This document shows positions 10,352-64,000 of a DNA stretch of 64,000 bases, piece after piece. Both the position numbers and the translations under genes were made by a program. Source of the DNA: an uncultured Actinomycetes bacterium (GTDB lineage Bacteria; Actinomycetota; UBA4738; HRBIN12); the NCBI GenBank assembly GCA_963723855.1, contig CAVRSI010000011.1, positions 122,181-186,180 of the forward strand, read 5' to 3'. The notes under the pieces are model-generated. The model searched no databases. It was not told the origin of the DNA and saw only the letters and a program-made list of their open reading frames with translations. The first letter of the stretch is position 1. Every line of letters starts with the position of its first letter.

Positions 10352-10363
10352 GCCGGACCTGCC

Positions 10364-11284: not shown

Positions 11285-11295
11285 CGGCGCGCAGT

Positions 11296-21580: not shown

Positions 21581-21642
21581 TTATCTCGAGAACGAGTATA
21601 CGAGCGAGCCCGTCGGCCGGTCCAGGCGTGCGCCGCGGCCCG

Positions 21643-27846: not shown

Positions 27847-27862
27847 GCGCTTCCCCGGCCGG

Positions 27863-29053: not shown

Positions 29054-29075
29054 GTCGGCGCGAGTATATCGGCCG

Positions 29076-42722: not shown

Positions 42723-42737
42723 CGACGTCTCGCTCCC

Positions 42738-44232: not shown

Positions 44233-44259
44233 GCGCCCGCTCCCATGTCGTTGAGCACC

Positions 44260-45310
44260 TTACGAGCCTCGTCGTCGGTGACGTCGTCGACCACGATCGG
44301 ACGTCCGATGTCTTGCAGGAGGACGAAGCGAACACCACCGCGGATACTTCTTGTCGAGCCTGAAGGCCGAGAGGATGTCGTCGGGGTCCGGAAGCGATCC
44401 GTCCGTCTCCAGCCCGAACGAGGCGAGCAGCCTCCCGGTGCGTGCGGCCAGGCCGTCGGGCGCCACGTCGCGGGCCTCCGCCAGCCGCGCCGCGAACACC
44501 ATGCCGACGGACACGGCCTCGCCGTGGGAACGGCCCGCGAACGCGTCCAGCCGCTCCAACGCGTGCCCGAGCGTGTGTCCGTAGTTGAGGATCAGGCGCC
44601 GACCGTCGTCCCGCTCGTCCTCTGCCACGATCTGGGCCTTCGCGGCGACGCAGCGAGCCACGATCCACTCGAGGGTCGCCGGGTCCCGCGCCAACACCGC
44701 CCCCGGGTCGCGCTCCAGCACGTCCAGGAGCCCACCGTCGAGGATCAGGGCGTACTTCACGACCTCCGACAGGCCGGAGCGGAACTCTCGCTCGCCGAGG
44801 GTTGCCAACGTGTCCACGTCGGCGACGACGAGCCGAGGTTGCGCGAACGCCCCTACGAGGTTCTTGCCCTCCGGAAGGTTGACGGCCGCCTTCCCGCCGA
44901 TCGCGGCGTCGACCTGTGCGAGCAGCGTGGTCGGCACCTGGACGAACGGGACGCCCCGCATGTACGTCGACGCGACGAACCCGGCGAGATCGCCGACCGC
45001 TCCCCCTCCCAGCGCGATCACGGGATCGTCACGATGGGCCTCCTGGGTCGCGAGCTGGTGCAGCAACGTCTCGTACACGCGCAGGGTCTTCGCGTCCTCG
45101 CCCGCGGGAACGACCAAGGGAACCGTGGCGAGGCCCGCCTCGCTCAGGGACGCCGCGAGCGGCTCCAGCCATCGAGCCGACACCGTGCCGTCGGCGACGA
45201 CGAACGCGGTGGAGGCGCCCGGGCAGCTCGGGGAGCAAGGAGCCGACCGACGCGATCGTGCCCGAGCCGACGCAGACGTCGTAGGACCGCCCCGGGATCG
45301 GGACGGTCAC
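44260..45310 (-). CDS. aroB: 3-dehydroquinate synthase; apparent frameshift near 45215 in a CCCGGG run
   Basis: The N-terminal ~32 aa ([31 protein letters not shown]) is in one frame. The remainder ([20 protein letters not shown]...[11 protein letters not shown]...) is in the 44260..45183 frame. Confidence 0.88.
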
Positions 45311-45804
45311 GCGGACCAACGAAGCTCCTCCACGATGGCGTCGGCGACCTCGGCGGGCGAGGCGGTCCCGTCGACCACGTGCGCCGCGAACTCGCGGTAG
45401 AGCGGCTCCCGAGCCGCCAGGAGGCGTTCCAGGTCGCCCTCCGTCCGGATGAGCGGCCGGTCCGCCGCGGGACGCACACGGGACCGGAGATCCTCGAGCG
45501 GCACGTCGAGGAACACCGCCACGCCGGTGTTCCGCAGGGTGATGCGGTTGGCGGGCTCCAGGACGACGCCGCCGCCGCACGCCACCACGGCCGGGTCGTG
45601 CATGCTCGCGTCCGTCAGCGCGGCGGCCTCCCGGGCGCGGAAGGCCGCCTCTCCCTCGGCGGCGAAGATGTCGGCGACGCTCGACCCCGTCTCGCGCTCG
45701 ATCTCCGAGTCGAGGTCGATGAACGGGACGCCCAACCGCCCCGCGAGCTCCTTGCCCACGACCGACTTGCCCGCTCCCGGCATCCCCACCAGGTAGACGA
45801 TCAT
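45307..45804 (-). CDS. aroK: Shikimate kinase
   Basis: About 165 aa starting [22 protein letters not shown]-loop kinase. Confidence 0.9.
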
Positions 45805-46953
45805 GCGAGCGTCTCCACGTACGCGTCCAGGTTCCGCCGCACCTCGGCCAGCGAGTCCCCGCCGAACTTCTCCACGACGGCGTTCGCGAGCTCGAACGCG
45901 ACGACCGCCTCGCCGACGACCCCTCCGGCCGGCACCGCGCACACGTCCGTCCGCTGCTTGATGGCGACCGCGGCCGCGCCCGTGGCCAGGTCCACGGTGG
46001 CGAGCGGACGGGGAACCGTGGAGAACGGCTTCATGGCGGCGCGCAGGCGGATCGGCTGGCCCGTCGACATGCCGCCCTCGATGCCCCCCGCGCGAGCCGT
46101 CTTGCGCCCGATGCGCCCGTCCCGGACGCACGATCTCGTCGTGGGCGTTCGATCCGGTCCGGCCGGCCGACGCGAACCCGTCGCCCACCTCCACGCCCTT
46201 CACCGACTGGATGCTCATCAGGGCCAGCGCGAGCCGCGCGTCGAGCTTGCGGTCGTAGTGCACGTACGAGCCGAGCCCGGGAGGCGCGCCGTACGCCACC
46301 ACCTCGAAGACCCCGCCGACCGTGTCCTTCGACCGCCGGATCCGATCGATCTCGGCGACCATCCGGTCGGCGGTCGCCTCGTCCGTGCAGCGCACCGGCG
46401 ATGCGTCGATCGCGTCCAGGTCGGCCAGGACCGGGACGCGCGACCGCGCCGGGACCTTCACGCTTCCGATCTGCACGACGTGTGAGAGCACGCCGATCCC
46501 GATCTCCGCGAGGAACGCCTTGCAGCAGGCCCCGACGGCGACCCGCGCGGCCGTCTCGCGCGCGCTCGCCCGCTCCAAGACGTTGCGCACGTCGTCGAAG
46601 CCGTACTTCTGCGTCCCGACCAGGTCCGCATGGCCCGGCCGCGGACGGGTGAGGCGCGCATCCGGATCCTCGGCGCCCTCGACGGCCATCAGGTCCGCGT
46701 ACTTCGCCTCGAACTCCACGTTGGGGATCGTGATGGCGATCGGGGAGCCCAGGCTGGTCCCGTGGCGGACGCCCGTCAAGATCTCGAACCGGTCGGCCTC
46801 GAACCGCTGCCGGCCTCCGCGCCCGTAGCCATGGCGGCGCCTCGCGAGCTCCCCGGCGATCTCCTTGGGAACGATCCCCACACCCGCCGGGAGGCCCTCC
46901 ACGATCGCGACCAGCGCTTTGCCGTGCGATTCGCCGGCCGTGAGCATCCGCAA
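45801..46953 (-). CDS. aroC: Chorismate synthase; apparent frameshift near 46112
   Basis: The N-terminal ~270 aa ([25 protein letters not shown]...) is in the 45307..46965 frame. The C-terminus ([24 protein letters not shown]...DAYVETLA) is in the 45801..46070 frame. One base is missing in CCGGG/ACGGG. Confidence 0.9.
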
Positions 46954-47014
46954 CATGGCGTTCATCTTACGGACCGGCCGAGGCGCCGGATGGGCGGGGG
47001 CGTGGTCTTGATGG

Positions 47015-47050
47015 GGCGGGGGCGGCCCCGAAGAACGAGGCCGCCCCCGC
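47015..47050 (-). terminator. GC-rich stem-loop (GGGGCGGCC-loop-GGCCGCCCC) between the pil MNOP-like operon and aroC
   Basis: There is a perfect 9-bp inverted repeat with no U-tract, so intrinsic termination is uncertain. Confidence 0.35.
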
Positions 47051-47100
47051 GCCGGCGACCGCTCCCCCCGTGGGCGGATCGCCGGGACCCGGAACCCGTC

Positions 47101-47760
47101 TACTTCGACGGGACGAAGCAGAGCGTGAAGGACTGATCTCCGAACAGGAACGTGGCACAGTCGCCGGCGACGTCCCGCAGCTCGAAGTTCCCCCCCGCGA
47201 ACGTGTCCCCTTCAGCCGGGTGGTAGACCGTGCCGTCGACCGACGACCGAGGCGTGCTGCACGCCGTTGGAGGTGTACGTGTCGATCAGCACCACCTCAT
47301 GACCGCCGATGGTCGTCGACGATCCGTTCGTCGGCGGCAGGGTCGGCCCGGTCGGTCCGGGGCCGGTCGTCCCACCGGTGGACCCCGTCGGCCCGGGACC
47401 CGTCGTCCCACCGGTGGACCCAGACGGCCCCGACGGCCCGGGTCCGGTGCCGGTGCCGCCGGTGGACCCTCCGGGCGCCGGGAACTGCGGCGGGATCGAG
47501 AACGGATCGCGCCCGGAGAAGATCGGGCTCGGGGCGGGTCCGCCGCTCTGCGACGGGGACACGCTGCCGGTCGGTCCGGTCGACGGAACGCCGGTGACGC
47601 CGGTCGGACCACCGCTCACCGATGGCCCCACCGAGAGCGGCGGCAAGGCCGATCCGCCGCCCTTCCCCAGCTGACCGAGAAGGAGCAGCGCGAGGACCAG
47701 CACGCCGGCCACGATGCCCCCGATCTTCAGCGCCTTACGGTCGCGTTCGTTGAGAGGCAT
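47101..47760 (-). CDS. PilP-like type IV pilus protein: N-terminal TM helix, Gly/Pro/Ser/Thr-rich tandem-repeat linker and a small C-terminal domain; apparent frameshift near 47225
   Basis: Reads [28 protein letters not shown]..., then a linker ([13 protein letters not shown] x2), then ...[19 protein letters not shown]. The continuation [46 protein letters not shown] (stop about 47101) is in the adjacent frame. Confidence 0.5.
47351..47421 (-). repeat. Two copies of a 36-bp in-frame tandem repeat encoding [12 protein letters not shown] inside the PilP-like gene
   Basis: Near-identical 35/36-nt units at 47351-47385 and 47387-47421. Confidence 0.8.
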
Positions 47761-47763
47761 CCG

Positions 47764-48414
47764 TCAGGCTCCTGGCTTCGTCTCGGCTGCCGGCGAAGGG
47801 CTCGTGGGCGCGGTCGTCGCGGTCGTCGCGCCGGCCGCAGAGGTCGGGCCAGGCGATGAACCCGGGCCAGCGCTCTCGTCGCTCGTGTAGATGTCGACCG
47901 AGGCGGTGAGGGTCAACAGGCTCGAGTTGCTTTCGGAGGGCGAGGGCGAGATCGACACCGCGGTCGTCTTCGCGGCGCGCGGGAGCGTCTCGACCTTGAA
48001 CAGGAACTCCGTGAGCGCGAAGTAGGAACCGGTGGTTGAGATGGCGTTGGCCACGGTGGACAGTCCCGTGGCCGGGTCGAAGATGGGATTGGTCGGCGTG
48101 ATCGTGACGACGTCGACCCCCGACTCCACGGCTGCGTTCTGCATCAGCAGCATGAACCCTTGCTGGTCGACGGTCGGCGGGATCGCTTGCTGGACCTTCC
48201 GGATGGTCTCCCGGTTCGCCGGGGCCTCTGCCTGGGCCGCCTGAAGAGCCGCCAATTGCGCACCCAAGGTCGCCTGCTGACCCTGCGCCTCCGCGAGAGC
48301 GGCGTTCGCATCCTTCACCTGACCCATCTTCGGCAGCACCAGGAAGAACCCCACCAGCACGACCGCGGCGGCGGCGGCGATCCCGGCGAACAGCGGCGCG
48401 CGCTTACCCCCCAC
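47764..48414 (-). CDS. pilO: Type IV pilus assembly protein PilO
   Basis: Has a TM helix (LFAGIAAAAAVVLVGFFLVL), a coiled-coil region and a periplasmic domain. Probable GTG start at about 48414. Confidence 0.7.
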   Translation of the reverse strand: MGGKRAPLFAGIAAAAAVVLVGFFLVLPKMGQVKDANAALAEAQGQQATLGAQLAALQAAQAEAPANRETIRKVQQAIPPTVDQQGFMLLMQNAAVESGVDVVTITPTNPIFDPATGLSTVANAISTTGSYFALTEFLFKVETLPRAAKTTAVSISPSPSESNSSLLTLTASVDIYTSDESAGPGSSPGPTSAAGATTATTAPTSPSPAAETKPGA

Positions 48415-49034
48415 CCTGCACGTCCCCTCGGCCGCGAGGCGTGAGCGCGTCCTCCGAAAGGTCGACCCCGCTGGTGAAGGTGTACAAGCCCGGTATTCGG
48501 ACCGGTCTCGGTGGCGCTCGAGACCCAAGGGTTGACCCATCCCTTAACCGATTCGAGCCTCGTGATCCAGCTCGCTAGGCTTTCGAACCCGTCCGCCGCC
48601 CCGCCGGCGGTGAACGACCCCACGAACGTCGTGGTGGTCGACGCCGCGGCTGTCCCGGTCACCGGCGCCGTGAGCGAGGCACTGAACGAAGAGAGGTACG
48701 CGTCCGATGGGATCGTGCGGGAGAGGTCCATCAGCATCTCCGAGAACGACACTTCGCCGACATACGCCTTCGCGAGCAGCGCCTCCTGCGCGGCGGCCTG
48801 CTCCTGGAGCTGCTGGAACTCCTGCAGCTGACCGATCTGAGCCTGGAGCTGCTGGTTCGTTGCGTTCTGTGCCGCGATGTCGTCGTTGATGCCCGCCAGC
48901 TTCTGGCTCTGCAGGAACCAGAAGGCGATGAGCAGCACGACCACCGCCGCACCGGCCCCGACGATCAGTGTGGTCTGCTGTTTGGTCTTCTGCCGTGCGC
49001 GAAGCTCAGGGGGAAGGAGGTTGACCTGACTCAC
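48404..49034 (-). CDS. pilN: Type IV pilus assembly protein PilN; possible frameshift near its 3' end (about 48460)
   Basis: Starts MSQVNLLPPELRARQKTKQQT with a TM helix. The ORF tail after ...SSATETGPNTG looks out of frame. The adjacent frame gives LYTFTSGVDLSEDAL... ending at TAA 48404, 8 nt before the pilO GTG. Confidence 0.8.
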
Positions 49035-50086
49035 GCGAAATGCCTCCCGGGGATGCCCAGGCCGACGGCCACCGCGAGCACCGGCTCCGCTTCGGCAAGC
49101 GCCTCCTCAGACAGGGACAGCTGCGACTTGGCCCGGCGGAACACGTGGCCGCGCTCGATCGTCGCGGGAACCCGTTCCTGCAGGAGCTCCAGGAAGCCCT
49201 GCAGCTTCGACCCGCCGCCGATCACCAGGACCCGCCCGATCCGGGCCCCACGCGTCTGGGCCGTGTAGAACTCGAGCGAGGACCGAACCTCGTCGACGAA
49301 GTTCTGCGCCCGCTGCATGGCGGCGCGATGGACCTCTTCCAGGTCGGGACCGCCCTCGACGGCCTCGCCGCGCTTCAGACGCTCGGCGACGTCGGCCTCG
49401 ACCCCGAAGTTCCGGGCGATCGCCAACGTGATGTCCCGGCCGCCCGACGGCAGGATCCGGACGAACCGCGTCACGCCCTTCTCGTGGACCAGGATGTTCG
49501 TGACCGTGGCGCCGATATCGACGATGGCCTCTTCGCCACCCTCTTCGTCCTCCATGCCGACCTCCGGCATGCCGACCGCGCGCGCCATGGCGAACGGAAC
49601 CAGGTCGACGCCGATCGGCTCGAGCTTCGCGGCGAGCGCGACATCGACGACCGTGTTCACCATCGCGCGCTGCGCGGCGACGAGGATGAGGCGCAGCATG
49701 CGGCGCCCCTCCTGCTCGAACTCTCCGAGCGGATCGAAGTCCAGGACGGCGTCCTCGACCGGCATGGGGATGAACTCCTGCGCCTGGAACCCGAGCGACG
49801 CTCGGAGCTCCTTCTCGGGGAGCCACGGGAGCGCGATCTCGCGCACCACCACCCGTTGGTTCCCGACACCCATGTAGACCTGCCGGCTCTTGAAGCCTCC
49901 GCGCTGCCAGAGCTCGCGCAACGCCTCGCTGACGACCTCGGGCTGGCGGATCTCGCCCGCCTCGACCGCCCCCTCCGGCAACGGCACCTGCGCCGCCCGA
50001 ACGACCACGGGGGTGTCGCCGCCCTGGAGCTCGGCGGCGCGCACGGCCGTCGCGCCGATATCCAGTCCGACCCGTACCTTCGCCAT
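49031..50086 (-). CDS. pilM: Type IV pilus assembly ATPase-like protein PilM
   Basis: 351 aa starting MAKVRVGLDIGATAVRAAEL, an actin-like fold typical of PilM. Confidence 0.9.
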   Translation of the reverse strand: MAKVRVGLDIGATAVRAAELQGGDTPVVVRAAQVPLPEGAVEAGEIRQPEVVSEALRELWQRGGFKSRQVYMGVGNQRVVVREIALPWLPEKELRASLGFQAQEFIPMPVEDAVLDFDPLGEFEQEGRRMLRLILVAAQRAMVNTVVDVALAAKLEPIGVDLVPFAMARAVGMPEVGMEDEEGGEEAIVDIGATVTNILVHEKGVTRFVRILPSGGRDITLAIARNFGVEADVAERLKRGEAVEGGPDLEEVHRAAMQRAQNFVDEVRSSLEFYTAQTRGARIGRVLVIGGGSKLQGFLELLQERVPATIERGHVFRRAKSQLSLSEEALAEAEPVLAVAVGLGIPGRHFA

Positions 50087-50383: not shown

Positions 50384-50743
50384 CCCCTTACCAAACACCA
50401 GGGAGCAACCGCAGTCAAACATCTCGCACAGGGAAGTTTCCGCAGGTCCGAACGGGTGTTCGGACAAGACCAGCTGCGCTCGGTCCCGAGAGTGGGTCGG
50501 CCTGCTGCCGGATTCATGTAAGAAGGGTGCCGAACCTGTTCAGTTAAGATTGACACCGCCGACGTACGGTGGCAGGAGTGGCGCAGGTCGATGCCACAAC
50601 ATCGCCCAGTTCGACGCCTTCCTCACGCCGAAATGGATAGGTCGGAACCGGACTTAGGACGAAGGGACGGCCGGAAGAGCACCTTTTTGCCGCTGTTGCG
50701 CCCTGGTCGGGTGACATAGATTGACCCAGTGAGGAAGCTTCCG

Positions 50744-51138
50744 ATGACGAAACGACGGTCGATCGCACGGGGGCTCGGGCAAGCAGTCGCCCGTTCGCAA
50801 CGCCCGCCCTTCCCCGATTGCCCGACCTCGAGACCGAGGGACCGGTGCATCAGCTGCTCATGTCCGGGGAGCGCGATGACGGCGGCTGGGGCCTCATCGG
50901 GGCGTTCTGGCTCTCGGTCGACGGCCGGCGCGGCGGGTTCATCGTGTCTCCGGGATTCCTTGGCATGGTAGCGAGATGGTCCGCAGCCTTCGAAGCGCGC
51001 TCGACCGCGGCTGGACCGAGGAGCGGATACTTCTCCTGCTGGGAGGGTCAGGTCGGCACCGTTGGCACCTACATGATCGATCCCGAGACGCCCGCGGAGA
51101 ACCTGGTCGAAGTCGCCCGCCGTGTAGGGGCGCTCTAG
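50744..51138 (+). CDS. Hypothetical small protein (possibly frameshifted between 50729 and 50818 frames)
   Basis: An SD (GTGAGGAAG) precedes the ATG at 50744. The downstream frame 50818..51138 has high GC3 and a plausible sequence (...GWGLIGAFWLSVDGRRGGFIVSPGFLGMVARW...). No recognisable domain. Confidence 0.3.
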
Positions 51139-51469
51139 CGGCGATCGGTGGTCATCCGCTTCCAGGCGCTCCGCTTCCCGCCAGCGTTGCCCTATCGGGC
51201 TCGCGTTCCATGTCCATCGCGATGCGTACTCAGCGATCGGTATCGAGAACACGATCCTTTCCGGTGGGGCAGAACGGGTGTCAGGATGTCGTGGCTGCCT
51301 AGTCCCGTACGCTCGGAGCGGAGCCGCAGAGAGGTAGGCGACCCCTGAGCCCTCGCCACCAGGCGGCGGCGCACGCCTCTCGATGGGTTGCGGCAAGAGG
51401 TCCGGCTGAGGACCCGTGCCGCCGCTCGGGTCACGTTGCCGTCGGCGAGACGTCCTGCGACAACGCGCC

Positions 51470-52288
51470 TTAACCGTCCGCGTTTGCCTCACTCTCACCG
51501 TGGAGGGACGGGTTGCTGATCAGTTCGGCGATGGCTAGCCCAAGCAGAACCAGTCGTCGTCGGGGAGGATCCCGCCTGCTGCGACGGCGCCGGCGCTTGC
51601 TGGCCCAAGATCTCAAGACAGATGCATCGGCTTCGCCAAGGCTTGGCGCATTCACCAAGGTGCCTTGAACAACCACCCCGATCGTGCAGGTGCCGCCGAC
51701 GCTGTAATAGAAATCCCCATTGAGTGCGGTGTTGATCGCCCCTGTCACGTTGAAATCGCCGAACACGCTCCTGTAACAAGTAGGTGCTCCGGCTGGTGGG
51801 GTGATATTGGCCGTCGTCGTAGCAGTCGTCGATGTGAGCAGGTATCTGCCCGCGTTCGCGTCCAGGGTGATGCCGGTAGCTGTCACCGAGATGCCTGTTC
51901 CGGGGCCGATGGACGCGAAGGTCGCGCTTGCGGCCGAGCAGGTCACGACGTCGGGCGAGATCACCCCGGTCAGCGAGCAGAGGGTCATCGTGGCCGCATT
52001 CGCGCCGTCGTAGACCTTGTCGGCCGCAGTCACGGTTGCGGTCACCGGCCGATACAGCGTCCCGCCTTTGGCCCCATAGCCTATGCAGAGCGCCTCACTT
52101 GGAAACGTTGTTCCGTCCGCGCGGACGAGCGTTTGCCAGCCGCCCTTCTGACAGAGTTTCGCATTCGTGGAGTTGCTGCCAGCGAAAGCGATTCCGACGT
52201 TGACGACGAGCATCACAACCACAAGGCCGAACGTCGCCACGATCGAGACCATGCGTCGAGCCCTTCGGCGCTCACGTCTCGCCCTCAT
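51470..52288 (-). CDS. Secreted/membrane-anchored protein with an MBG/YDG-type adhesin-repeat signature, in a lower-GC island
   Basis: Has an Arg-rich N-terminus plus hydrophobic segment (MVSIVATFGLVVVMLVVNVGIAFA) and a Cys-containing region. It carries a KVYDG...LTGVISPDVVTCSAASATFAS...GRYLLTSTTATTTANIT block typical of MBG/YDG repeats. Local GC is about 55-60%. The C-terminal ~60 aa may be out of frame. Confidence 0.5.
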   Translation of the reverse strand: MRARRERRRARRMVSIVATFGLVVVMLVVNVGIAFAGSNSTNAKLCQKGGWQTLVRADGTTFPSEALCIGYGAKGGTLYRPVTATVTAADKVYDGANAATMTLCSLTGVISPDVVTCSAASATFASIGPGTGISVTATGITLDANAGRYLLTSTTATTTANITPPAGAPTCYRSVFGDFNVTGAINTALNGDFYYSVGGTCTIGVVVQGTLVNAPSLGEADASVLRSWASKRRRRRSRRDPPRRRLVLLGLAIAELISNPSLHGESEANADG

Positions 52289-52656: not shown

Positions 52657-53436
52657 TCACGATTCGCGCTCACGTGACCGAACGGAGGTACCAGTCTGCG
52701 ATCGTCGCACCCCAAGCGTCGCTGTGATGGCGCCCGCCGCAAGGAACGGCCCGAATGGGATCGCGCTCTTTCGCCCGCGGCCGGCGAGCAGGGCGACGAG
52801 GCCTCCCAGACCCCCGAGCAAGACTGCGACGCCGGCCGCCACAGCGACGCAGCGCAAGCCGAGCGCTCCCATCATCAAGCCGATCAGCGCCGTCAGTTTC
52901 ACGTCGCCCATGCCGAGGCCTCGAGGCGCTATCAACGCGATGAGCATGAACAGACCCCCGTAGGCGAGCACACCCACGATCGCGCGCAGCGGGGCCAGCG
53001 GTTGGCCGATCGCCCACCCGAGGACGATCGCGGCGGCGAACGCTGGGAACGCGGGATAGGTGATCCGGTTAGGGATGATGCGATGCTCCAGGTCGATGGC
53101 ACCCACGGCGAGCATCGTCGCGCAGAAGGCGACAGAACCACGATCAGATGAGATCTGTGGATAAACGATGGCGACCCCCGCGAACAAGGCCGCGGTCCCC
53201 CCCTCCAGCACGGGATATCGGACCGGGATCGGTGCACGGCACGAGCGACACCGACCGCCGAGAAGGAGCCACGAAAGGACCGGGATGTTGTCGCGACTCT
53301 TGATCTCGGCACCGCAGTGCGGGCAGCGCGACCGCGGTGAGACGATCGATTCCTTCTTCGGGATCCGGTCGACGACGACGGTCAGGAAGCTCCCGACAGC
53401 GAGTCCGAACGGTACCGCGACGAGGGCACGGATCAC
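52657..53436 (-). CDS. pilD: Type IV prepilin peptidase (A24 family) PilD
   Basis: Has N-terminal zinc cysteines (CPHCGAEI...CRSCRAPI), catalytic Asp motifs including GMGDVKL, and multiple TM segments. Confidence 0.9.
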   Translation of the reverse strand: MIRALVAVPFGLAVGSFLTVVVDRIPKKESIVSPRSRCPHCGAEIKSRDNIPVLSWLLLGGRCRSCRAPIPVRYPVLEGGTAALFAGVAIVYPQISSDRGSVAFCATMLAVGAIDLEHRIIPNRITYPAFPAFAAAIVLGWAIGQPLAPLRAIVGVLAYGGLFMLIALIAPRGLGMGDVKLTALIGLMMGALGLRCVAVAAGVAVLLGGLGGLVALLAGRGRKSAIPFGPFLAAGAITATLGVRRSQTGTSVRSRERES

Positions 53437-53475: not shown

Positions 53476-54957
53476 GGACCATGGAACCTACGAGGCCTCG
53501 CGCACGTACGCGATGTCCTCGCGGAACGAAGTGATGGTGCCGTAGCCCGGAACGAGCACCGGGCGGAACGTCATCGTGTAGTTGTTCCCGATGACGACAG
53601 TGCCGCCCATGACCTGGCCGTAGTAGTTGTTCTGGTTGTTCATGTTCGCCGCGCAGGGTGTGTAGAAGAAGACCTGGGTGTTGGAGTCGAAGTTCGTGAG
53701 GTTCCCGACGCTGACGTCCTTGCTTGACGTGCCTGTCGGGCAGGGAGATGGAGCGGGCCATGTGCTGATGAAGAAGATGCTCTCGGTCGCGGAGGCTCCG
53801 TTCCAATTGGATTTCTGCTGGAGGTTGATGCCCCAGTCCGTGATGATCGCTAGGTTCCCATTGACACCTATCGTCTTGTTGTTGCCGTTCGAGAACGTGC
53901 AGGGGGTCGCGCCGGGTCAATCCGCACGACGAAGCTCCCAGACCAGGAACCCTCGACGAACGATCGGGCCTGACTGCAGGCGTCTCCCACCGAGAACGTA
54001 TTGCCTCCGCATGTCGTGGACGCCGACGCGCCAAACGTGCATACCGTGTATCCCGCATTGACCCAGTTCGTTTGGTCCGTCGCCGTGAACGTGATCTGAG
54101 GGAAGGGTTGGGTCGGAGGCCTGGGCGACACGGTGTTCGTGTATGACGTTCCGGCCACGGAGACCCCGCTGATCGTCGTGCCCGCAGTAGCGCTGTTGCC
54201 GATCGATTCGCTGCCGCCGATCGAGGAGCTTGAAGAGGTGACGCTGCCCGAGACGCTCGTGGGGTTGGCCATGGTCACACTGTCGTTGGCCCACAGGTTC
54301 CCCTGGATGTTCGAGTTGTTTGAGATCGACGCCGCCCCGTATGGGATGTAGACGTTGCCGCGAATGCGTGGCGTGTTCGTGATGACGAGGTCGCCGTTCA
54401 ATATGTACACGTCGCCGTCGTTCCCGTTATTGCCGTAGATGTCGAAGTTGTTCGGGAAGTTCGCGCCATTGTTGGTAAGGACGGCGGCTCCGAAGCCCCC
54501 GTAGACAGGCATTAGTCGGATGTAGGTCTGCATCGTCCTCGGGGTTTGACCGCCAACCGTTCCCGTAGTGGTGATGAATACCGACGACGGGTAAACCGCG
54601 TCGGTAAAGGGACAGTTCATCACGTGCGCAGGGGTAAGCAAACCACTGGCGTCGTAAAAGGTCGGCGTCGCAGTGAAGCTAGCGCTCGCCGGCGCGCTCG
54701 CGATCGACTGGGTCACGGGGTTACAGCTCAGCGTCGTAACCGGGGTGGACTGCAGGAGCGCGTAGTAGTAGTTCGCGCCGGATTCGGCGGCGTCTACTGA
54801 GGTCAGCCTTTGCCGGTCGTAGCCAGTGGACTGCGCGTCGTGGATCGACTGCGCGACGATCACGGTGGACAGGATCAGCAGCACCATGCTCACGAGGAGG
54901 GCGATCACCATCGCCATTCCTTCCTCTCCGCTCGATCGGATGCGCATCGTTAGCTCC
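53476..54957 (-). CDS. Large PilX/PilY-like pilus-associated protein (about 490 aa); apparent frameshift at a C5 run near 53905
   Basis: The SD TAAGGAG precedes an ATG at about 54957. It starts MRIRSSGEEGMAMVIALLVSMVLLILSTVIVAQS and has Asn/Gly-rich beta-solenoid-like repeats (NGANFPNNFDIYGNNGNDGDVYILNGDLVITN...). The C-terminal ~140 aa (GVNGNLAIITDWGINLQQK...FREDIAYVREAS) is in the adjacent frame. Confidence 0.5.
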
Positions 54958-54984
54958 TTACGGTTCACGTTGGCACGTTCGTGG

Positions 54985-55580
54985 GCAGGGTGGCGCAGAC
55001 GGCGAGCGGATAGCCGAACGAGGTGTTTCGGCCCGTCACCGAGGTCTGCAGTCTTTGGGTCGCATTGGCGGACCCCGTCGGGGTCCGAGTTGACGAGGAA
55101 CTGCACCGTCATCGTCCGCCCGGTAGGATCAAGCGTGAATGCGCTCTGTGATTGGGCGCGGTTCAAGATGCCGTCGGCAACGACCTGCCAGGTCAAGGCT
55201 CCCGGCGTGATGTTCGGCTTCCAATACCCGTACATCAGCTGGTTCTGACTGTTGATCGTCCACAGAGCGCAGCGGCTGATGTCATCCTGTGCTGAGTAGG
55301 CCTGGGTGTAGATGAGGAACGTATACCCTGCGGCGTTGGGCGGGTACAGGAGATTGCCGGAGCGCACCTGGCGGTCGATCGTCTGCATGGCGAGGCGGAC
55401 CTGGTTGATCGTTCTGGACCGCACGTCCTCGTTCACGCTTGCCTTCTGGATCGATGTCAAGGTCGATAGCAGGATCACCATGGCGATCGACAGGATGCTC
55501 ATGGCAACCACTAGCTCGACGAGCGTCATGCCTCCGTGTTCGTGGAGGCGCTGCCGTAGCTTGGCGATCCGATTCGCCAT
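54985..55580 (-). CDS. Minor pilin with prepilin-type N-terminal cleavage/methylation domain
   Basis: Starts MANRIAKLRQRLHEHGG|MTLVELVVAMSILSIAMVILLS (G-1, E+5). Its 3' end is unresolved because the track ORF runs into the next gene, so a terminal frameshift is likely. Confidence 0.65.
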
Positions 55581-55585
55581 CCCTA

Positions 55586-57369
55586 TCACCCGGCCGCCGG
55601 CGCGGGAGCGTAGACACTTCGCGTGAGCATCGTCCCCATGTTGATAGCGATGTTCAGGTTTATCGCCGTCGCCCCGTCGACGATCACCACGTAGTGCACC
55701 GTCGCCTTGAAGGGCGTCACGCTTGAGTCCTCGGCCGTGCACTGGGTGAGCGTCGCGCTCGGCGTGCACGTCCGGGTCGAGCCGGACGTGGCTGCTTGGA
55801 TCCCGAGCTCACCGAGATGGTCACCGTGACAACGTGCCCGCCGACCGTGGCGGTCTGGGTCGCGGGAGGCGCAACGATGTTGTTGAGCAGCGCATCTGTC
55901 ACCGAGCGAGAGGTGTAGCTTGCACCGTTCCAGTAGGAGATCGTGCCGGCCGACGGGGCGGCCGCCGGCGCGGCCGTGGTCGTCGACCCCGCCTGGGAGG
56001 TCGCGCTGTCCCGGTATCCGGTCATCGAGAGCAGGTAGCCAGTCCAACCGGCCGGCGCGCCGACCGCCGCCGGGAAGGCGCCGATGTTCACCTGGCCGAT
56101 GTTCCGGGTGGCCGACCGCGACGCTGCCGTCCTTGCCGGGGTCCACCTGGCGATTGACGAAGGACGTGTTTGGGTTGCTCGCGGCCGCGTCGACGCTCGC
56201 AAGCGCCGCGGTGCCGAGGCCCCCAGCAAGTCCATTGAGAGTCATGGAGGCCGTCAGAGGCGCCTCCCTGCTGGATCCGCCCGCCGACGCAAGGGAGGTT
56301 ATCGGTCTCAGCCGTATCGGTCGGGGGCGGGCAGACGTTGGTTCCCCCGGCAGCGACCGCGGCGTCGGCCAAGCCGGCGTCATTCGGTGGCGCTCCAGGT
56401 CGATGGACGTCGAGCCGTTGGTGGACGAAACCGCACCGCCTAGGCCCGAAACCGGCAGACTCGTACCGTAGGTGAGGGCGGGTGCTCCCGGGTCTGAGTC
56501 CGCGGCGCTCGCCGTCGTGAGCGTACCGGCGTCCGTCCGTGTGCCAGCCCCATCTGTCACCGAGACCTGGGACTCCGAGAACGACGCCCGACCTACCGTC
56601 ACTTGCTCGTTCTGAAGGTTCGACTCCGTTCCAGTCAGACCGAGGTAGCCGCTCGTGAAGTTGTTCAGGCCCTGGATCGACCCGCTGATATCGATATGCG
56701 CTGCCGGCACCTGCGCGAGGCCGTAAAAGGACGGTTGGCACGGAGCCGCGAATGGGTGGGTCGACGAGCTCAGGCACCCACTCGGCGACGAGAACAGGCT
56801 CTGGATCTGAACGAGGTTGTTGGCCTTGTTCGGGTAGGCAGCGCTTGTCCAGCTAATCATGACGGTGACCCGGTACGGGGTCATCGCGGGGCAGGTGGCC
56901 GTCACCGAAGGGCAGTCGTTAGTGACGTAGGTCTGCCAGTTGAAAGCGATGTTATTCGTCGTCGCGGTCGCGGCGATCGTGCCGGTGTGTGGATTGATCC
57001 ACGGCGTCGAAGGCACGCCACCGGAGTTCACGATCCGCTCGCCTGAGCAGGACTGGAACCGGTAGACGATCGGTGTCCCCCCACAGTTCGCGATGTTCGG
57101 GTCTGTTAGATCACTGCTGGACAGCCCCGTCTGGATCTTCGAGTACGCCTGCCCTCGGATGGTCTCCATGATCTGGTCCGCGATGCCGTCGGCGGTGACA
57201 CGCTCGCGGCCGTAGGCGATCGAGTGGAACCCGAGGGTCGCCGTGTACGCCATCGCGACCATGGCGGCGAAGATGATCGTGATCGCGATCATCGTCTCGA
57301 TGATGGTGAATCCGCGCTGGTCGTCTTTGGCGAGCGCAGACAGGCGCCTTGCAGTATCGCCCGGGTCAT
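55586..57369 (-). CDS. Large minor pilin / pilus tip protein with prepilin leader; several apparent frameshifts (leader at about 57349, body at about 56400 and about 55760)
   Basis: The ATG at 57369 (SD GGGAAGGA) gives MTRAILQ in one frame. The joined reading would be RRLSALAKDDQRG|FTIIETMIAITIIFAAMVAMAY. The body is Thr/Ser-rich and its pieces lie in at least two frames before the common stop at about 55586. Confidence 0.55.
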
Positions 57370-58172: not shown

Positions 58173-58808
58173 CTACTGGGTCAGGGTTTCGGCGTCTGCG
58201 GCATCCTGCTTGAGGGCTCGGCGCTCGTCCGTCCATGAATACCTGGGAACGGGTAGGACGCGGGCTACCAGCCGGCGGCGGCGGGGCTGTCGCGGCGGTC
58301 GCGGTTCGCCGCTGCCCACGTCGCCGTGCAGTTCGGCGGCCGTCGTCTTCCCGTACTTGGTCCCGGTCGTGCCGTCGAGGATCACGAAGCACGTGCTGCG
58401 ACGCCGACAGCCGAGCCGCGGAGAACTGCGTCGCCGTCGAGTGGACGCTGATCGACCCGATCCCGCTCCCGCTGGCGCACGCCGGGAGCGACGGGGTTCG
58501 TCGCCGCCGATGCCTGCCGTTGGCACGTAACACATGTTCGGGATGATCGTGACGAGCCCGTGCCGGACTCGTCGGCGGATGTGAACGTGGCGTTGTCCGT
58601 GTACAGGATCCGCGCCGCCAGGACCGCGTTCCGCAGGTCCGATCTGGGCGGCGCGGTCCTGGAACCTCGCCCGCACGCCGAGGAACGTCGGCAGGCCCAT
58701 CACGATCAGGATGGCGAGGATCATCACGACGACCATCAACTCGATGAGCGTGAAGCCGTCCTCGTCCTCGTCGCAAGCCGTCTGCCAGGTTCGGAGCACC
58801 GGTGCCAC
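58173..58808 (-). CDS. pilA: Type IVa major pilin paralog 2; multiple apparent frameshifts
   Basis: GTG start with SD GAGAGGAG; reads MAPVLRTWQTACDEDEDG|FTLIELMVVVMILAILIVMGLPTFLGVRARFQDRAAQ. The continuations SDLRNAVLAARILYTDNATF... and ...IIPNMCYVPTAG... are in other frames. The 3' end is uncertain. Confidence 0.7.
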   Translation of the reverse strand: MAPVLRTWQTACDEDEDGFTLIELMVVVMILAILIVMGLPTFLGVRARFQDRAAQIGPAERGPGGADPVHGQRHVHIRRRVRHGLVTIIPNMCYVPTAGIGGDEPRRSRRAPAGAGSGRSASTRRRRSSPRLGCRRRSTCFVILDGTTGTKYGKTTAAELHGDVGSGEPRPPRQPRRRRLVARVLPVPRYSWTDERRALKQDAADAETLTQ

Positions 58809-58982
58809 CTCCTCTCGCTCGTCAGCGTCGACGGCCGGGGACCCGTCCGTCGCACCGTCTTTCACGAGATATCGGCACGGATGCCGTCGAGGGTTGACCC
58901 CTCCGGCCCGCCGACGCGGACCGGAGGGACAAGAGCCAACGTTCGACGTACGTAGAACCGGCGGATCACTACGTACGTGGCC

Positions 58983-60199
58983 TTACTGGATCAGCTTGAT
59001 GATGTTGAACATCGGCATGTAGAGCGCGATGACCGCGGCTCCCACGGCTCCTCCGATGATCGCGATCAGGAGCGGCTCGATCAGCGACGTCAGGGCGTCG
59101 ACCGACGCCTCGACCTCCTGGTCGTAGAACTTCGCGACCTTCTCGAGCATGGTGTCGACCTGGCCGGTCTCCTCACCCACCGCGAGCATCTGCACGACCA
59201 TCGGCGGGAACACGGCGTGCCTCGCGAGCGGCTTGGCGATCGACTCACCTTCGCGGACGCTCGCCTGCACGTCGACGACCGCCTTCGACATCACCTTGTT
59301 GTTCACGGTGTCCGCGACGATGTCCAGCGCCTGCAGGATCGGGAACGCCCGAGCGCAGCAGCATCGCCGGCCGTGCTGGAGAAGCGGGACAGCGCGGTCT
59401 TGTGGAAGAGCGTGCCGAAGATCGGGATCTTCAGCTTGAGCGCGTCGAGCGTCGCCCGTCCGGCTTCCGTCTTCTTGTACCGCCTGAAGAGGAACGACGA
59501 ACACGAACGTGAGCATGATGAGGAGTCACCAGTACTTCTTCACCGCGTCCGAGGCCATGAGCAGGACCCGGGTCGGCAGCGGCAGCGTGCCGCCGAGCTG
59601 CGTGTAGATGGTCTTGAACTGCGGCACGACGAACAGCAGCATCGCCGACATGATCAGGACGACCAGCGCGACGACCGCGACCGGGTACGTCATGGCCGAC
59701 TTGATCTTCTGCCGCAGGTGCACCTCGCGCTCGAGCACGTCGGCCAGCCGGAGCAGCACGTCGTCCAACATCCCGCCCGTCTCGCCCGACTTGACCATGG
59801 CGATGTAGAGGTCGTTGAACGCCTTGGGGAACTTCGCCATGGCCACGGACAGGCTCGAGCCCTGCTCGACGTCGTTGCGGACGAGCGTCAGGGTCTTCGC
59901 GAGCTCCTTGTTGCTGACCTGGTCGGACAGGATCGACAGCGCGCGCAGGATCGGCAGGCCGGAGTTGACCATGGTGGCGAACTGCCGGGAGAAGATCGCG
60001 ACTTCCTTGAGCTTGATCTTCGCCGGCCTGATGTTGATCTCGAGGTTGAGGCCCTTCTTCTCCTTGCCGACCTCGAGCGGGGTGTACCCCATCTCGCGGA
60101 GGCGCTCGAGGACCAGGCGCTCGTTGTCGGCGACGAGGGTCCCCGTGACGAGGTTCCCGGACTTGTCCCGGACCTTGTACTGCGTAGGACTCAGACATA
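58983..60199 (-). CDS. pilC: Type IV pilus inner-membrane platform protein PilC (GspF family); at least three apparent frameshifts (about 60185, 59530, 59400)
   Basis: The ATG overlaps the pilT stop. The first GspF repeat (...FSRQFATMVNSGLPILRAL...) is in the 59526..60482 frame. The second repeat (...FPILQALDIVADTVNN...LIEPLLIAIIGGAVGAAVIALYMPMFNIIKLIQ) is in the 58983..59516 frame. The central TM segment is in a third frame. Confidence 0.85.
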
Positions 60200-61357
60200 G
60201 TCGCCTCCCGACATCATCGAGCCCATCGCCATGGCTCCGCCGCCGTCCATCGGAGGCGGAGCGGAGGCGCCGCCGACCAGCCGCTGGAGCTCCTCGGGGT
60301 CGTGGCAGCGCTCGAACGCCACCTGCTGGTTGATGCGGCCGGCCTTCACGTGCGCGGCGATCGACATGTCCATCGTCTGCATCCCGTACCGGCCGCCGGC
60401 CTGCATCGCGGAGTAGATCTGGTGGACCTTGCCCTCGCGGATCAGGTTGCGGATGGCCGGGGTCGTGACCAGCACCTCGCACGCCGCGACGCGTCCCTGG
60501 CCGTCGGTCGTCTGGAGCAGCTGCTGCGTGACGACACCCTGAAGCGTGGTCGCCAGCTGCACCCGCACCTGCTGCTGCTGGTGCGGTGGGAACACGTCGA
60601 TGATGCGGTCGATCGTCTGCGGCGCGTCCTGCGTGTGCAGGGTCGCGAAGACCAGGTGGCCGGTCTCGGCCGCCGTGATCGCGGTCGAGATCGTCTCGAG
60701 GTCTCGCATCTCACCGACCAGGATGACGTCGGGGTCCTGACGCAGGACGTGCTTCAGGGCCTGGCCGAACCCGTGCGTGTCGGCGCCGACCTCGCGCTGG
60801 TTCACGATGCACTTCTTGTGCTTGTGCAGGAACTCGATCGGGTCCTCGACGGTCATGATGTGGCCGGCCCGCTCCTCGTTGACCACGTCCACCATGCCGG
60901 CGAGCGTGGTCGACTTGCCCGAACCCGTCGGGCCCGTCACCACGACGAACCCACGCGGGAACCGGGCGAGGTCGGCGACCACGCCCGGGAGGCCGAGGTC
61001 TTCGAGCTTCTTGATCTCGAACGGGATGAGCCGGAACGCCGCGCCGAGCGCGTCGCGCTGCTGGTAGACGTTCACACGGAAGCGCGCCTGACCCGGCAGG
61101 GAGTAGGACATGTCCAGCTCCAGCTCCTGCTCGAACCGCTCGCGGAGCTTCTGCGGCAGGATCGCGTAGATCATGCCCTGAAGCGCCCGGGGCGTCAGCG
61201 GAGGATACTTCTCCAGCCGCTCCAGCTCGCCGTTCACACGCACGACGGGCGGGGTCCCCACCGTGAGGTGGAGGTCCGAACCGCCAACCTCCAAGAGCGC
61301 CGTGAGCAGCTCCGGGATCGGGATATTCACGTCGTCTTGATCTGCTTGCATCACCAT
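60191..61357 (-). CDS. pilT: Twitching motility ATPase PilT
   Basis: 388 aa with Walker A GPTGSGKST, the PilT AIRNLIRE motif, and an intact frame. Confidence 0.95.
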   Translation of the reverse strand: MVMQADQDDVNIPIPELLTALLEVGGSDLHLTVGTPPVVRVNGELERLEKYPPLTPRALQGMIYAILPQKLRERFEQELELDMSYSLPGQARFRVNVYQQRDALGAAFRLIPFEIKKLEDLGLPGVVADLARFPRGFVVVTGPTGSGKSTTLAGMVDVVNEERAGHIMTVEDPIEFLHKHKKCIVNQREVGADTHGFGQALKHVLRQDPDVILVGEMRDLETISTAITAAETGHLVFATLHTQDAPQTIDRIIDVFPPHQQQQVRVQLATTLQGVVTQQLLQTTDGQGRVAACEVLVTTPAIRNLIREGKVHQIYSAMQAGGRYGMQTMDMSIAAHVKAGRINQQVAFERCHDPEELQRLVGGASAPPPMDGGGAMAMGSMMSGGDYV

Positions 61358-61358: not shown

Positions 61359-63041
61359 TCACTTCACCACCCTTGCGATCTCTCCGATGGATGTCCGGCC
61401 CATGCGGGCCTTCTCCAGACCGTCGTCACGAAGCGTCATCATTCCCTGCTCGATCCCGGTCTTCCGGATCTCATCGGCAGATGCCCGGTCGACCGTGAGC
61501 CGTTGGATCTCCTCCGTCATCGGCATGACCTCGTACAGACCTGCACGTCCGCGGTAGCCCGTGTTCGAGCATGCCGAGCAGCCGGCCGGATGGAACAGCG
61601 TGTCGATCTCCGGGATCAGCCAGTCCGGGTAGCCGGCGGCCACCAGTTCCGCGTGCTCGGGCTTGTACGCCTCCTTGCATCGCTCGCAGAGCATCCGGAA
61701 GAGGCGCTGGGCGACGACGCAGTCGATCGCGGACGCCACCAGGAACGTCTCGACCTCCATCTCCACCAGCCGCGAGATGGCCGATGCGGCGTCGTTCGTG
61801 TGCAGCGAGGAAAGGACGAGGTGACCGGTGAGGGCGGCCTCGATCGCGATCGTGGCCGTCTCCTTGTCGCGGATCTCACCGATCAGCACGATGTCCGGGT
61901 CGGCACGAAGGATCGACCGCAGGGCCGACGCGAAGGTGAGCCCGGCCTTCGGGTTCACCTGCATCTGGTTCACGCCGTCCAGGCGGTACTCGACCGGGTC
62001 CTCGACCGTGATGATGTTGCGGTCTTCCTGGTTCAAGATGTTGAGCGTCGCGTACATGGTGGTCGACTTCCCCGAACCGGTCGGCCCGGTCACCAGGATC
62101 GCGCCGTACGGCTTGCTGAACGACGCGGAGAACCGCTTGTAGGCGTCGTCGGAGAAGCCCAGATCCTCGAGGCGAAGGAGCGCCTGGGACTTGTCCAGGA
62201 CGCGGATGACGATCTTCTCGCCGTAGACCGTGGGGAGCGTCGCGACACGCAGATCGAGCGTGCGCCCGCCGACCCGCATGCTGATGCGGCCGTCCTGCGG
62301 CACCCGCTTCTCCGCGATGTTCAGGTCGGCCATGACCTTCAGCCGGCTGATCAGGCCGCCCTGGATGTTCTTGGGCGAGTGCATGACGTCGTGGAGCACG
62401 CCGTCCACGCGGAACCGGACGCGGACGTCCCGCTCGGTCGGCTCGATGTGGACGTCGGAGGCCCGGTCGCCCACCGACTGGGTCATGATCGCCTGCACGA
62501 GCTTGACGATCGGTGCTTCCTCGAGCGCCGCCTCCAGCTGTTCATCGTCGCCCTCGAGCTGTTCGGAAGCCTGCGACGCAAGGGCTTCGACCTGCCCGTC
62601 CATGCCGGCGAACTTCTGGATCGCCTGCTCGACGTCGGCGGCCGTCGCCACCACCGGCTGGACGTCGCGGTTCGTGATCGTGCGGATGTCGTCCAGCGCG
62701 TAGACGTTCGCGGGGTCCGACATCGCGACCAGGAGCTTGCCGTCGCGTTCCCCGATCGGGATCGCGCGGTACCGGCGCGCGAGCGCATCCGGCAGCAACA
62801 TCGTGGACGAGGGATCGATGTGATAGTCGGCCAGGTCGACGAACTCCAACCCGACCTGCTCGGCGAGGGCGCGGACCAGGTCCGCCTCCTTGATCAACCC
62901 GAGGTCGATCAGGACGCGGCCGAGCGACTTGGGGGTCTTGCGATGCTCCTCGAGCGCCTGCTCCAGTTGCGCAGCAGTGATGAGACCCTGTTCGATCAGG
63001 ATCTGTCCGAGTTGCTTCGCCTTTCGCTTGACCGTAGTCAT
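61359..63041 (-). CDS. pilB: Type IV pilus assembly ATPase PilB (GspE family)
   Basis: 560 aa with N-terminal GSPII domains, Walker A GPTGSGKST, and a tetracysteine zinc motif (CERC...CSAC). Confidence 0.95.
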   Translation of the reverse strand: MTTVKRKAKQLGQILIEQGLITAAQLEQALEEHRKTPKSLGRVLIDLGLIKEADLVRALAEQVGLEFVDLADYHIDPSSTMLLPDALARRYRAIPIGERDGKLLVAMSDPANVYALDDIRTITNRDVQPVVATAADVEQAIQKFAGMDGQVEALASQASEQLEGDDEQLEAALEEAPIVKLVQAIMTQSVGDRASDVHIEPTERDVRVRFRVDGVLHDVMHSPKNIQGGLISRLKVMADLNIAEKRVPQDGRISMRVGGRTLDLRVATLPTVYGEKIVIRVLDKSQALLRLEDLGFSDDAYKRFSASFSKPYGAILVTGPTGSGKSTTMYATLNILNQEDRNIITVEDPVEYRLDGVNQMQVNPKAGLTFASALRSILRADPDIVLIGEIRDKETATIAIEAALTGHLVLSSLHTNDAASAISRLVEMEVETFLVASAIDCVVAQRLFRMLCERCKEAYKPEHAELVAAGYPDWLIPEIDTLFHPAGCSACSNTGYRGRAGLYEVMPMTEEIQRLTVDRASADEIRKTGIEQGMMTLRDDGLEKARMGRTSIGEIARVVK

Positions 63042-63193
63042 GTCGGGCTACCGGCGTCCGTTCGGTCTAGGTCGTCAGGAACTAACTTCGTCATCACCGC
63101 TCTCGACCTGAAGCAGGCCCGAGAACTCTTTGGCCAACATGACCGGATCGACCTCGGCGTCGGCGTCGAGCTCCATCGGAGGTGGCGTGTCCG

Positions 63194-63916
63194 TTACCGT
63201 TGCGTTCGTTCGTATCGGAGGCGTCGCCGCCGGCCGCTCCTTCCGCGTCCGGGCCGGACGTCGACGTGCCCTCCGCTCCGGCGGCTGCCCTTCTTCCCGG
63301 AGCCGCCGTTCGCGGCGCGCTCGACGGCATCCGCCGGGTCGGAACCGGACCCCTCCGCACCGGCCGCATCCCCCGAGCGGCCGACACCGCTTGCAACCGC
63401 GGCCATCGCCTCCTCGGTGGACGCGGCGGGCTTGCCGTCCGCGGCGGGCTGGGCGGTCCGAGCCCAATGTCGTGCCTGGGCGCTGTCGGGGGCCGGCGGG
63501 GTCGCGGACGAGTCGCCGTTCGTCGACTGCTTGTAGGACGACGTCGGCGATTTGCCCCGGGGCCCACCCGACGCCTCGGGGACGCGGAGCGTGTCGCGGC
63601 GGTTCCGGGACTCCTCGGCGGAGGTCAGGATGCCCTCGAGCTGATCGATCACCAGGCCGGGGCGGACGCCGGCGTTGGCCACGGCGAATGCACCGTACGC
63701 GGGCCGTCTGACGTAGACCCAGACCTGGTCGCCGAATTCGACGAAGCTGCGCTCGGGGTCCCCGAGCGAAGCGAACCTGACCCAGGCCGGCTTCACGGCC
63801 GTCTCGTCGTCCGGGTAGGACCCGAGGATCAGCCCGTCCCTGGAAAGGATGAGACAGCCGCGCACGTCGGCGACGCCGCCCGCGATGCGATACGCGAGCG
63901 CCGAGTAGTCATCCAT
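63194..63916 (-). CDS. Roadblock/LC7 (MglB-like) domain protein with a low-complexity C-terminal tail
   Basis: The N-terminal ~100 aa (DYSALAYRIAGGVADVRGCLILSRDGLILGSYPDDE...) match the roadblock/LC7 fold. The tail is Gly/Ser/Arg-rich and may be partly out of frame. The gene lies directly upstream of pilB at the window edge. Confidence 0.65.
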   Translation of the reverse strand: MDDYSALAYRIAGGVADVRGCLILSRDGLILGSYPDDETAVKPAWVRFASLGDPERSFVEFGDQVWVYVRRPAYGAFAVANAGVRPGLVIDQLEGILTSAEESRNRRDTLRVPEASGGPRGKSPTSSYKQSTNGDSSATPPAPDSAQARHWARTAQPAADGKPAASTEEAMAAVASGVGRSGDAAGAEGSGSDPADAVERAANGGSGKKGSRRSGGHVDVRPGRGRSGRRRRLRYERTQR

Positions 63917-64000
63917 ATGTCACCCCTCACATCGTCGGACCGTGGCGAACGCTTGAGCATCCGGCCCGGATGAAGCGGTGAACGGCCGCAGGCGCGGGGG

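Follow-up and report, generated by a model that had tools for sequence, protein, structure and literature searches.

Results

Genes and Features of the Pilus Locus

The stretch of DNA analyzed here, in the following called the window, has a length of 64 kb and a GC content of 68%, and all genes close to its right end lie on the minus strand. This end carries the motor genes of a type IV pilus cluster that also comprises genes for pilins, a prepilin peptidase and the components PilM, PilN and PilO (Table 1). The gene directly upstream of pilB, as well as its product, is referred to as X. The preliminary description of this DNA had correctly noted that a gene directly precedes pilB at the edge of the window; pilB, pilT and pilC lie on the same strand.

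Table 1. Features annotated in the window. Positions are those of the window; (-) denotes the minus strand.
Feature	Position (strand)	Remarks
23S rRNA	1..2400 (-)	Cut by window end; rRNA operon 1..4175
16S rRNA	2647..4175 (-)	Complete
FMN riboswitch	21453..21581 (-)	108 bits; upstream of riboflavin-biosynthesis-like ORFs
pilO	47764..48540 (-)	Far end of pilus cluster
pilN-like	48315..49034 (-)	Far end of pilus cluster
pilM	49031..50086 (-)	Far end of pilus cluster
pilD, prepilin peptidase	52657..53436 (-)	
Pilin/minor-pilin genes between pilD and pilC	53868..55769, 58173..58865 (-)	N_methyl matches
pilC, platform protein	58983..60200, split reading to 60482 (-)	Two T2SSF halves
pilT, retraction ATPase	60191..61357 (-)	TIGR01420, 487 bits
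pilB, extension ATPase	61359..63041 (-)	MshEN-type N-terminus and T2SSE; TIGR02538, 651 bits
X, full gene (probable extent)	63075..63916 (-)	279 aa after deletion of 1-nt insertions 63286 and 63195
ORF of the preliminary description	63194..63916 (-)	Frameshift-truncated; last ~30 codons out of frame
Roadblock/LC7-fold domain of X (predicted)	63587..63916 (-)	Residues 1 to ~110; AlphaFold2, Foldseek, conservation, sub-threshold Pfam
Linker of X, disordered	63159..63586 (-)	Pro/Ala/Glu/Ser/Gly-rich; low pLDDT; holds both frameshifting insertions
C-terminal helix motif of X and stop	63075..63158 (-)	AEVDPVMLAKEFSGLLQVESGDDEVSS; frame differs from N-terminal domain in window

Two ORFs are located between pilD and pilM (50623..52288, minus strand); one of them carries a YDG domain (PF18657, E 4e-12), and the second gave a weak Exo_endo_phos match. 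Residues 1-62 of PilB (62850..63041, minus strand) pass the NCBIfam model of the MshE-type c-di-GMP-binding motif, with 68 bits vs. a cut-off of 38 bits. The canonical MshEN motif has 'RLG' at a place where the PilB repeats have Q or S ahead of L-G ('KQLG', 'KSLG'), and the same holds for PilB of two related loci, L045 and L065. c-di-GMP may still be bound there, or a different ligand, e.g., the helix of X, may have taken its place.

Shikimate-pathway genes appear to lie at 43801..47211 (minus strand), with an aroK-type Walker A motif 'GMPGAGKS' in the ORF 45310..47211, and an EF-P-like ORF at 41721..42737. The gene order past the latter is presumably nusB, pyr, gmk, metK, priA and fmt, as judged by partial translations and the usual order in actinomycetes. 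The pilus cluster appears between the shikimate-pathway genes and aroE, which by homology lies just outside the window. With aroE on one side and shikimate genes on the other, the cluster thus looks inserted in the conserved actinomycete block alaS-ruvX-mltG-aroE ... aroC-aroK-aroB.

Reading Frame and Ends of X

The ORF 63194..63916 on the minus strand (240 aa), from which X was first described, is present and coding-like, with codon-position GC1/2/3 values of 0.71/0.61/0.87, but its 3' end had been placed wrongly. Three public contigs (L003 = L007, L004 and L005) encode a PilB with 100% identity to that of the window. A DNA alignment of the window with these close relatives, which are 97% identical to it overall in the X region, revealed two single-base insertions (an extra A each) at 63286 and 63195 that are private to the window. 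After deletion of both insertions, a protein of 279 aa was obtained, with the same C-terminus (...AEVDPVMLAKEFSGLLQVESGDDEVSS) as in the relatives and a stop codon at 63075-63077, i.e., 33 nt ahead of the ATG of pilB. An intact 279-aa ORF of X is present in L003, L005, L006 and L007. Since the two deletions restore the protein of the relatives, the real X gene most probably extends over 63075..63916 on the minus strand, and the 3' end at 63194 appears to be an artefact. In the window as assembled, the C-terminal motif sits in another frame (ORF 63075..63467) than the N-terminal domain. An exact look-up of the 240-aa ORF gave no match because this ORF is frameshifted. The ORF 63182..63973 on the opposite strand was taken for a high-GC shadow ORF and set aside.

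For comparison, 87 loci were fetched, of which 86 have both X and pilB. The motif was present at the DNA level in all 86 loci, in frame in 74 and frame-shifted in 12. In the window, pilC (58983..60482) is also broken, by an in-frame stop and about 55 aa that are out of frame between two compensating indels; it is intact in L005 (403 aa). These defects, the two private insertions in X and the overlapping split ORFs that are common elsewhere in the window (e.g., 10367..11809 with 11299..12741, and 26041..28029 with 27866..29194) would fit a genome in which the frameshifts are real, X and pilC are pseudogenes and the pilus system is decaying. However, the motif past the shifts is still 100% identical to that of the relatives at the protein level, and the DNA around it is invariant. 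Moreover, all 12 frame-shifted related loci stem from long-read assemblies, whereas those of short-read assemblies are intact. Essential housekeeping genes of the window look split as well, which points to assembly indel errors, and the many overlapping split ORFs suggest that such errors are pervasive in this assembly. Decay of the pilus system is considered improbable, and assembly indels are the likeliest cause of the frameshifts in X and pilC of the window. If the shifts were real, X of this genome would be without its C-terminal helix.

X Is Linked to pilB

The usual gene order in the related loci is rarA - DUF948 - alaS - ruvX - mltG - aroE - X - pilB - pilT - pilC, and the upstream order aroE, mltG, ruvX, alaS was seen in about 75 of 80 species. 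pilB follows directly 3' of X in 85 of the 86 loci, mostly with a stop-to-start gap of 22-40 nt, and a remote family member of 480 aa (E 9e-30) likewise abuts pilB. This linkage bears out the earlier assignment of X to the head of a pilB-pilT-pilC operon. The spacer between aroE and X is about 90 nt overall and 92 nt in the closest relatives, and the window stops within it.

Some loci deviate from this order. aroE is missing in L016-18 and L086, and X stays with pilB there. In L045, genes resembling larB/larC/larE of nickel-pincer cofactor synthesis (7130..9883 of that locus) lie between aroE and X, and X abuts pilB. L065, on the complete chromosome OY969934.1, is the only locus with a gene between X and pilB, encoding an 837-aa STAND-type ATPase/TPR protein. 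Upstream of X and on the opposite strand, L065 carries a chemosensory cluster of MCP, cheW and cheA genes (5300..13800 of that locus); Che-type input to this pilus system is possible in this one species. Where the gene order breaks, X tracks pilB and not aroE.

The adjacency of aroE and X is widely conserved too, as would be expected if X were a generic Roadblock scaffold unrelated to pili, e.g., one tied to aroE/mltG that stands beside pilB by inherited gene order. This is very improbable, since X remains with pilB in L016-18, L045 and L086, the tight spacing of 22-40 nt is toward pilB, and the X family co-occurs with this pilus cluster in 86 of 86 loci having both genes. Judged by gene order, a clade of uncultured Actinomycetota probably has a type IVa pilus motor operon of the form X-pilB-pilT-pilC, with X conserved as its first gene. 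The short gap suggests that X and pilB are co-transcribed. Scans for a consensus sigma-70 promoter and an intrinsic terminator around X gave no match and were uninformative.

N-Terminal Domain of X

Three parts can be distinguished in X: the first ~110 aa form the N-terminal domain, a disordered linker comes next, and the C-terminus carries an acidic helix motif that is conserved. An L-S-R-D-G beta-hairpin, W45, W66, Y74 and R85-P-G are near-invariant in the N-terminal domain. The assignment to Roadblock/LC7 (MglB-like) proteins made in the preliminary description held at the level of the fold but not at that of the Pfam threshold. Pfam PF03259 (Robl_LC7) matched the window protein with 16.1 bits, below the cut-off of 23, and over residues 15-40 only. 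Among 38 family members, the same model gave a sub-threshold match in 34 (best E 3.6e-4) and a match above cut-off in none, and no competing Pfam family was seen. The NCBIfam search returned no family for X, and no Roadblock entry was reached in an HMM search of the PDB sequences. COG2018 ('regulator of Ras-like GTPase activity', Roadblock/LC7/MglB) is the JGI label of two members. Two further matches were set aside as probable noise or very remote similarity, namely a marginal profile match to the PDB sequence of 2o5h, an uncharacterized Neisseria protein (E 0.004), and a match of two members to DUF596 (E ~0.1).

AlphaFold2 modeled the N-terminal 122 residues with 38 homologues at a pLDDT of 85.5, and the domain of a full-length short-linker homologue with 88 sequences at a pLDDT of about 97. 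The topology was alpha-beta-beta-alpha-beta-beta-beta-alpha in both models. In two Foldseek searches of the PDB, Roadblock/LC7-type proteins, including Ragulator/LAMTOR, filled nearly all of the top 50; the exceptions were coatomer zeta at rank 16 in one search and profilin at rank 49 in the other. The best matches were the CvnB-like Streptomyces structures 3kye and 3leq (E 4e-6). MglB of Myxococcus and Thermus was matched as well (6h5b, 6hjm and 1j3w; E ~3e-5, with 2.8e-5 for 6h5b_B). MglC (7ct3), Asgard Roadblock proteins and LAMTOR were also matched. Thus, the models confirm a predicted Roadblock/LC7 fold of the N-terminal domain at fold level, below the Pfam threshold. A domain of this fold would be expected to dimerize.

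Linker and C-Terminal Helix of X

The linker varies in length from 25 to 312 aa across the family (median 116), and its sequence is poorly conserved. Directly after the Roadblock domain, past helix alpha3, the family alignments show a second semi-conserved segment, LRVP[ED]A..APSGKPRTSLH, whose P and R reach a conservation of at least 90%; the window protein has a degenerate form of it (LRVPEASGGPRGKSPTSSY, residues ~108-125).

A conserved motif (...EVDRVLLAQEFSRLLQ) and, after it, an acidic tail make up the end of the homologues. The consensus of the helix motif is [VI]-D-[RP]-phi-x-L-A-[KRQ]-E-F-x-x-L-L-Q and lies about 9-11 residues from the end, with a D/E tail after it. D and E of the motif are invariant, and L, F, L and L are at least 90% conserved. 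AlphaFold2 predicted the C-terminal helix with a pLDDT of about 85 in the full-length homologue. The DNA of motif and tail (from alignment column 822 onward) is identical in the window and its three relatives (4/4), whereas the linker diverges.

The median net charge is -6 for the tail and about -4 for the N-terminal domain. Docking of the helix on its own domain or on the membrane is therefore unlikely, and a basic partner would be needed. As judged from the sequences, a basic external partner for the C-terminal helix is more plausible than the protein's own acidic domain. A membrane-targeting amphipathic helix was also considered and rejected: the hydrophobic moment of 0.12-0.20 was no better than that of shuffled sequences, and the tail is strongly acidic.

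Distribution of the X Family

When a profile was run against 1.84 billion cluster representatives, 318 proteins in total were matched, 291 of them with E <1e-10. Canonical MglB and CvnB were not reached by this search. By these profiles, the X family appears to be closed, sharply bounded and distinct from canonical MglB and CvnB. The members that were looked up are unnamed or annotated as 'hypothetical' and stem from uncultured Actinomycetota. With each GTDB species represented by a single genome, 154 carriers of X were found; the best 80 of these are MAGs without exception, and the long-read MFD soil project contributed many of them.

Search for a Partner GTPase or Conservon

The preliminary description had predicted a cognate small GTPase gene just beyond position 63916. 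In order to find such a gene, the 64-kb window and 1.32 Mb of flanking DNA from 80 species were scanned for ORFs with a Walker A motif and [NT]KxD at the right spacing, and no small-GTPase ORF was found in either. In a tblastn search, an MglA query (97% identical to annotated MglA) had no match below E 0.01 in the 1.32 Mb of flanks, and in the window no match surpassed E 2. In the protein database, this query matched at least 8000 myxobacterial-type proteins. No mglA lies within +/-10 kb of X in the 80 species, and across the 86 loci no MglA-family GTPase gene is coupled to X within about four genes, the distance used by Wuichet and Sogaard-Andersen. The synteny exceptions L045 (larB/larC/larE) and L065 (che, STAND-ATPase/TPR) hide no GTPase either.

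A conservon at this position fared no better. The scan gave no GTPase ORF, and no histidine kinase adjacent to X was seen in the gene calls of the inspected loci, the cheA-like kinase of L065 being part of the chemosensory cluster. Of the conservon components, this check covered the kinase (CvnA) and the GTPase (CvnD). The neighbors of X are aroE/mltG and pilB/pilT/pilC and not those of a cvnA-cvnB-cvnC-cvnD locus.

In the relatives, the place beyond 63916 is taken by aroE, mltG, ruvX, alaS, DUF948 and rarA. The view that a cognate GTPase or a conservon (cvnA/C/D-like) just upstream of 63916 forms an operon-level switch with X draws on the general rule that MglB/CvnB genes usually stand next to their GTPase, and on that rule only. 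Against it, the closest relatives, with a 100% identical PilB, have aroE 92 nt upstream, then mltG, ruvX and alaS; about 75 of 80 species share this order; the exceptions bring in larBCE or che genes and no GTPases; and both the motif and the tblastn scans were negative. An adjacent partner of this kind is barely tenable. Since the scans were negative in the relatives' flanks and in the window, the prediction of an adjacent GTPase is refuted; the absence of a GTPase within a few kb upstream, as found in the relatives' flanks, is the very result that the preliminary description had named as speaking against it.

Discussion

X Compared with Known Roadblock Systems

Roadblock domains form dimers that serve as platforms for the regulation or scaffolding of NTPase machines. 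MglB is the GAP/GEF of the small GTPase MglA in Myxococcus xanthus and Thermus thermophilus, and MglA-MglB control pilus polarity or extension/retraction in Myxococcus. MglC is an orphan Roadblock paralogue of M. xanthus that acts as an adaptor and binds MglB and RomR.

X shares with MglB the Roadblock/LC7 fold (Foldseek E 3e-5 to 1e-4), a flexible C-terminal extension ending in a D/E-rich helix and a connection to type IV pili, which is functional for MglB and given by operon position for X. In MglB, the helix is a tethered binding element. The negatively charged C-terminal helix beyond the Roadblock domain is thus a trait of both proteins, but the tether is much longer in X (25-312 aa) than in MglB (about 15 aa). 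The two also differ in that MglB is encoded in an mglBA operon, whereas X is the first gene of pilBTC with no mglA within +/-10 kb, and in that X remains below the Robl_LC7 cut-off, with no HMM link to MglB. Like X, MglC has a Roadblock fold (7ct3 among the top matches) and is an orphan without a coupled GTPase; in contrast, it is a bare Roadblock domain of ~120 aa, without linker or C-terminal helix, and not in a pil operon. Of the MglC partners, neither MglB nor RomR was encountered at the X loci examined.

CvnB of S. avermitilis (3kye, 3leq) belongs to the same phylum and is the best structural match of X (E 4e-6, TM 0.64-0.76), but it shares only about 15-19% identity, its architecture is different, and no cvnA/cvnD neighbors were seen at X. 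Dynein LC7/Roadblock and LAMTOR/Ragulator share only the fold with X (E about 1e-4 to 1e-3). They are dimeric platforms that dock helical peptides or partners and scaffold NTPase machines; in contrast to X, they are eukaryotic and lack a tethered C-terminal helix. Archaeal type IV pilus loci repeatedly encode Roadblock proteins of arCOG02603 (Makarova et al. 2016; PMC4858521). These represent a different domain of life, and their likeness to X is one of genomic context alone: Roadblock proteins are associated with type IV filament loci time and again, and no GTPase is mentioned for them. What is new in X is the sequence family, its fixed place at the head of pilBTC and the lack of a coupled GTPase gene; the Roadblock fold and an MglB-like layout were known.

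X as a Candidate Regulator of the Pilus Motor

We tentatively propose, as a reading whose chances we put slightly short of even, that X, an orphan Roadblock protein with MglB architecture, serves the pilus motor as an adaptor or regulator, its helix engaging a basic site on a motor component. The N-terminal Roadblock domain would form the usual dimeric platform. Each protomer would bear a long, flexible Pro/Ala/Glu linker with the conserved acidic helix at its end. On its tether, this helix may serve as the ligand of a basic site, most likely on PilB, with PilT, PilM and PilC as alternatives. X might thus recruit, position or gate the motor ATPase directly. The MglB architecture, i.e., a Roadblock dimer with a D/E-rich C-terminal helix, would have been redeployed without an adjacent MglA. 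There are precedents for such a protein: of 749 MglB homologues, 328 (44%) are orphans, and one actinobacterial clade consists of orphans only (PMC4316618); the D/E-rich helix of MglB binds its partner while tethered (PMC6785124); and Roadblock proteins occur repeatedly in archaeal pilus loci (PMC4858521). Both the partner of X and a regulatory effect on the motor are what we infer here.

As the main alternative, X could regulate, in the manner of a true MglB, a GTPase whose gene lies elsewhere, and this module would control pilus polarity or extension/retraction. MglB is among the top structural matches of the Roadblock fold, and two members bear the JGI label COG2018. The D/E-rich C-terminal helix of MglB, on its flexible tether, binds an allosteric pocket of MglA (PMC6785124), so that the closest precedent for a Roadblock domain with an acidic C-terminal helix is small-GTPase binding. 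Orphan MglA proteins such as SofG regulate PilB/PilT positioning (PMC4316618). However, no GTPase was found within +/-10 kb in 80 species, nor in the 64-kb window, the profiles of the X family and of canonical MglB/CvnB do not reach each other, and the linker of X is 5-20 times longer than that of MglB. A distant GTPase partner is therefore regarded as unlikely.

A more far-reaching form of the motor proposal is that X acts as a GTPase-independent dimer whose acidic helix binds and gates a hexameric ATPase of the PilB/PilT type. This would constitute an undescribed class of type IV pilus regulator and is viewed as possible but somewhat unlikely. According to an idea ascribed to Koonin and Aravind, Roadblock/LC7 proteins reportedly regulate NTPases in general. 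If gating of the ATPase by X were true, it would represent a bacterial case of this idea and would parallel the unexplained Roadblock proteins of archaeal pilus loci.

Significance for Type IV Pili of Actinomycetota

How monoderm Actinomycetota regulate their type IV pili has, to our knowledge, hardly been described. The polarity and activation modules known so far, MglA/MglB/SgmX and FimX/PilZ, are those of diderm bacteria. A search of the accessible literature found no paper in which type IV pili of Actinobacteria are connected with a Roadblock protein. A practical limit is that the carriers of X found so far are uncultured MAGs, as determined for the best 80 of 154. The presence of an operon-linked X without a neighboring GTPase may mean either direct control of an ATPase by a Roadblock protein or a split MglA/MglB system. 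Either outcome would widen the known uses of Roadblock platforms in prokaryotes, and X would offer a handle on the uncharacterized 'orphan MglB' genes as well as on the Roadblock genes of archaeal pilus loci.
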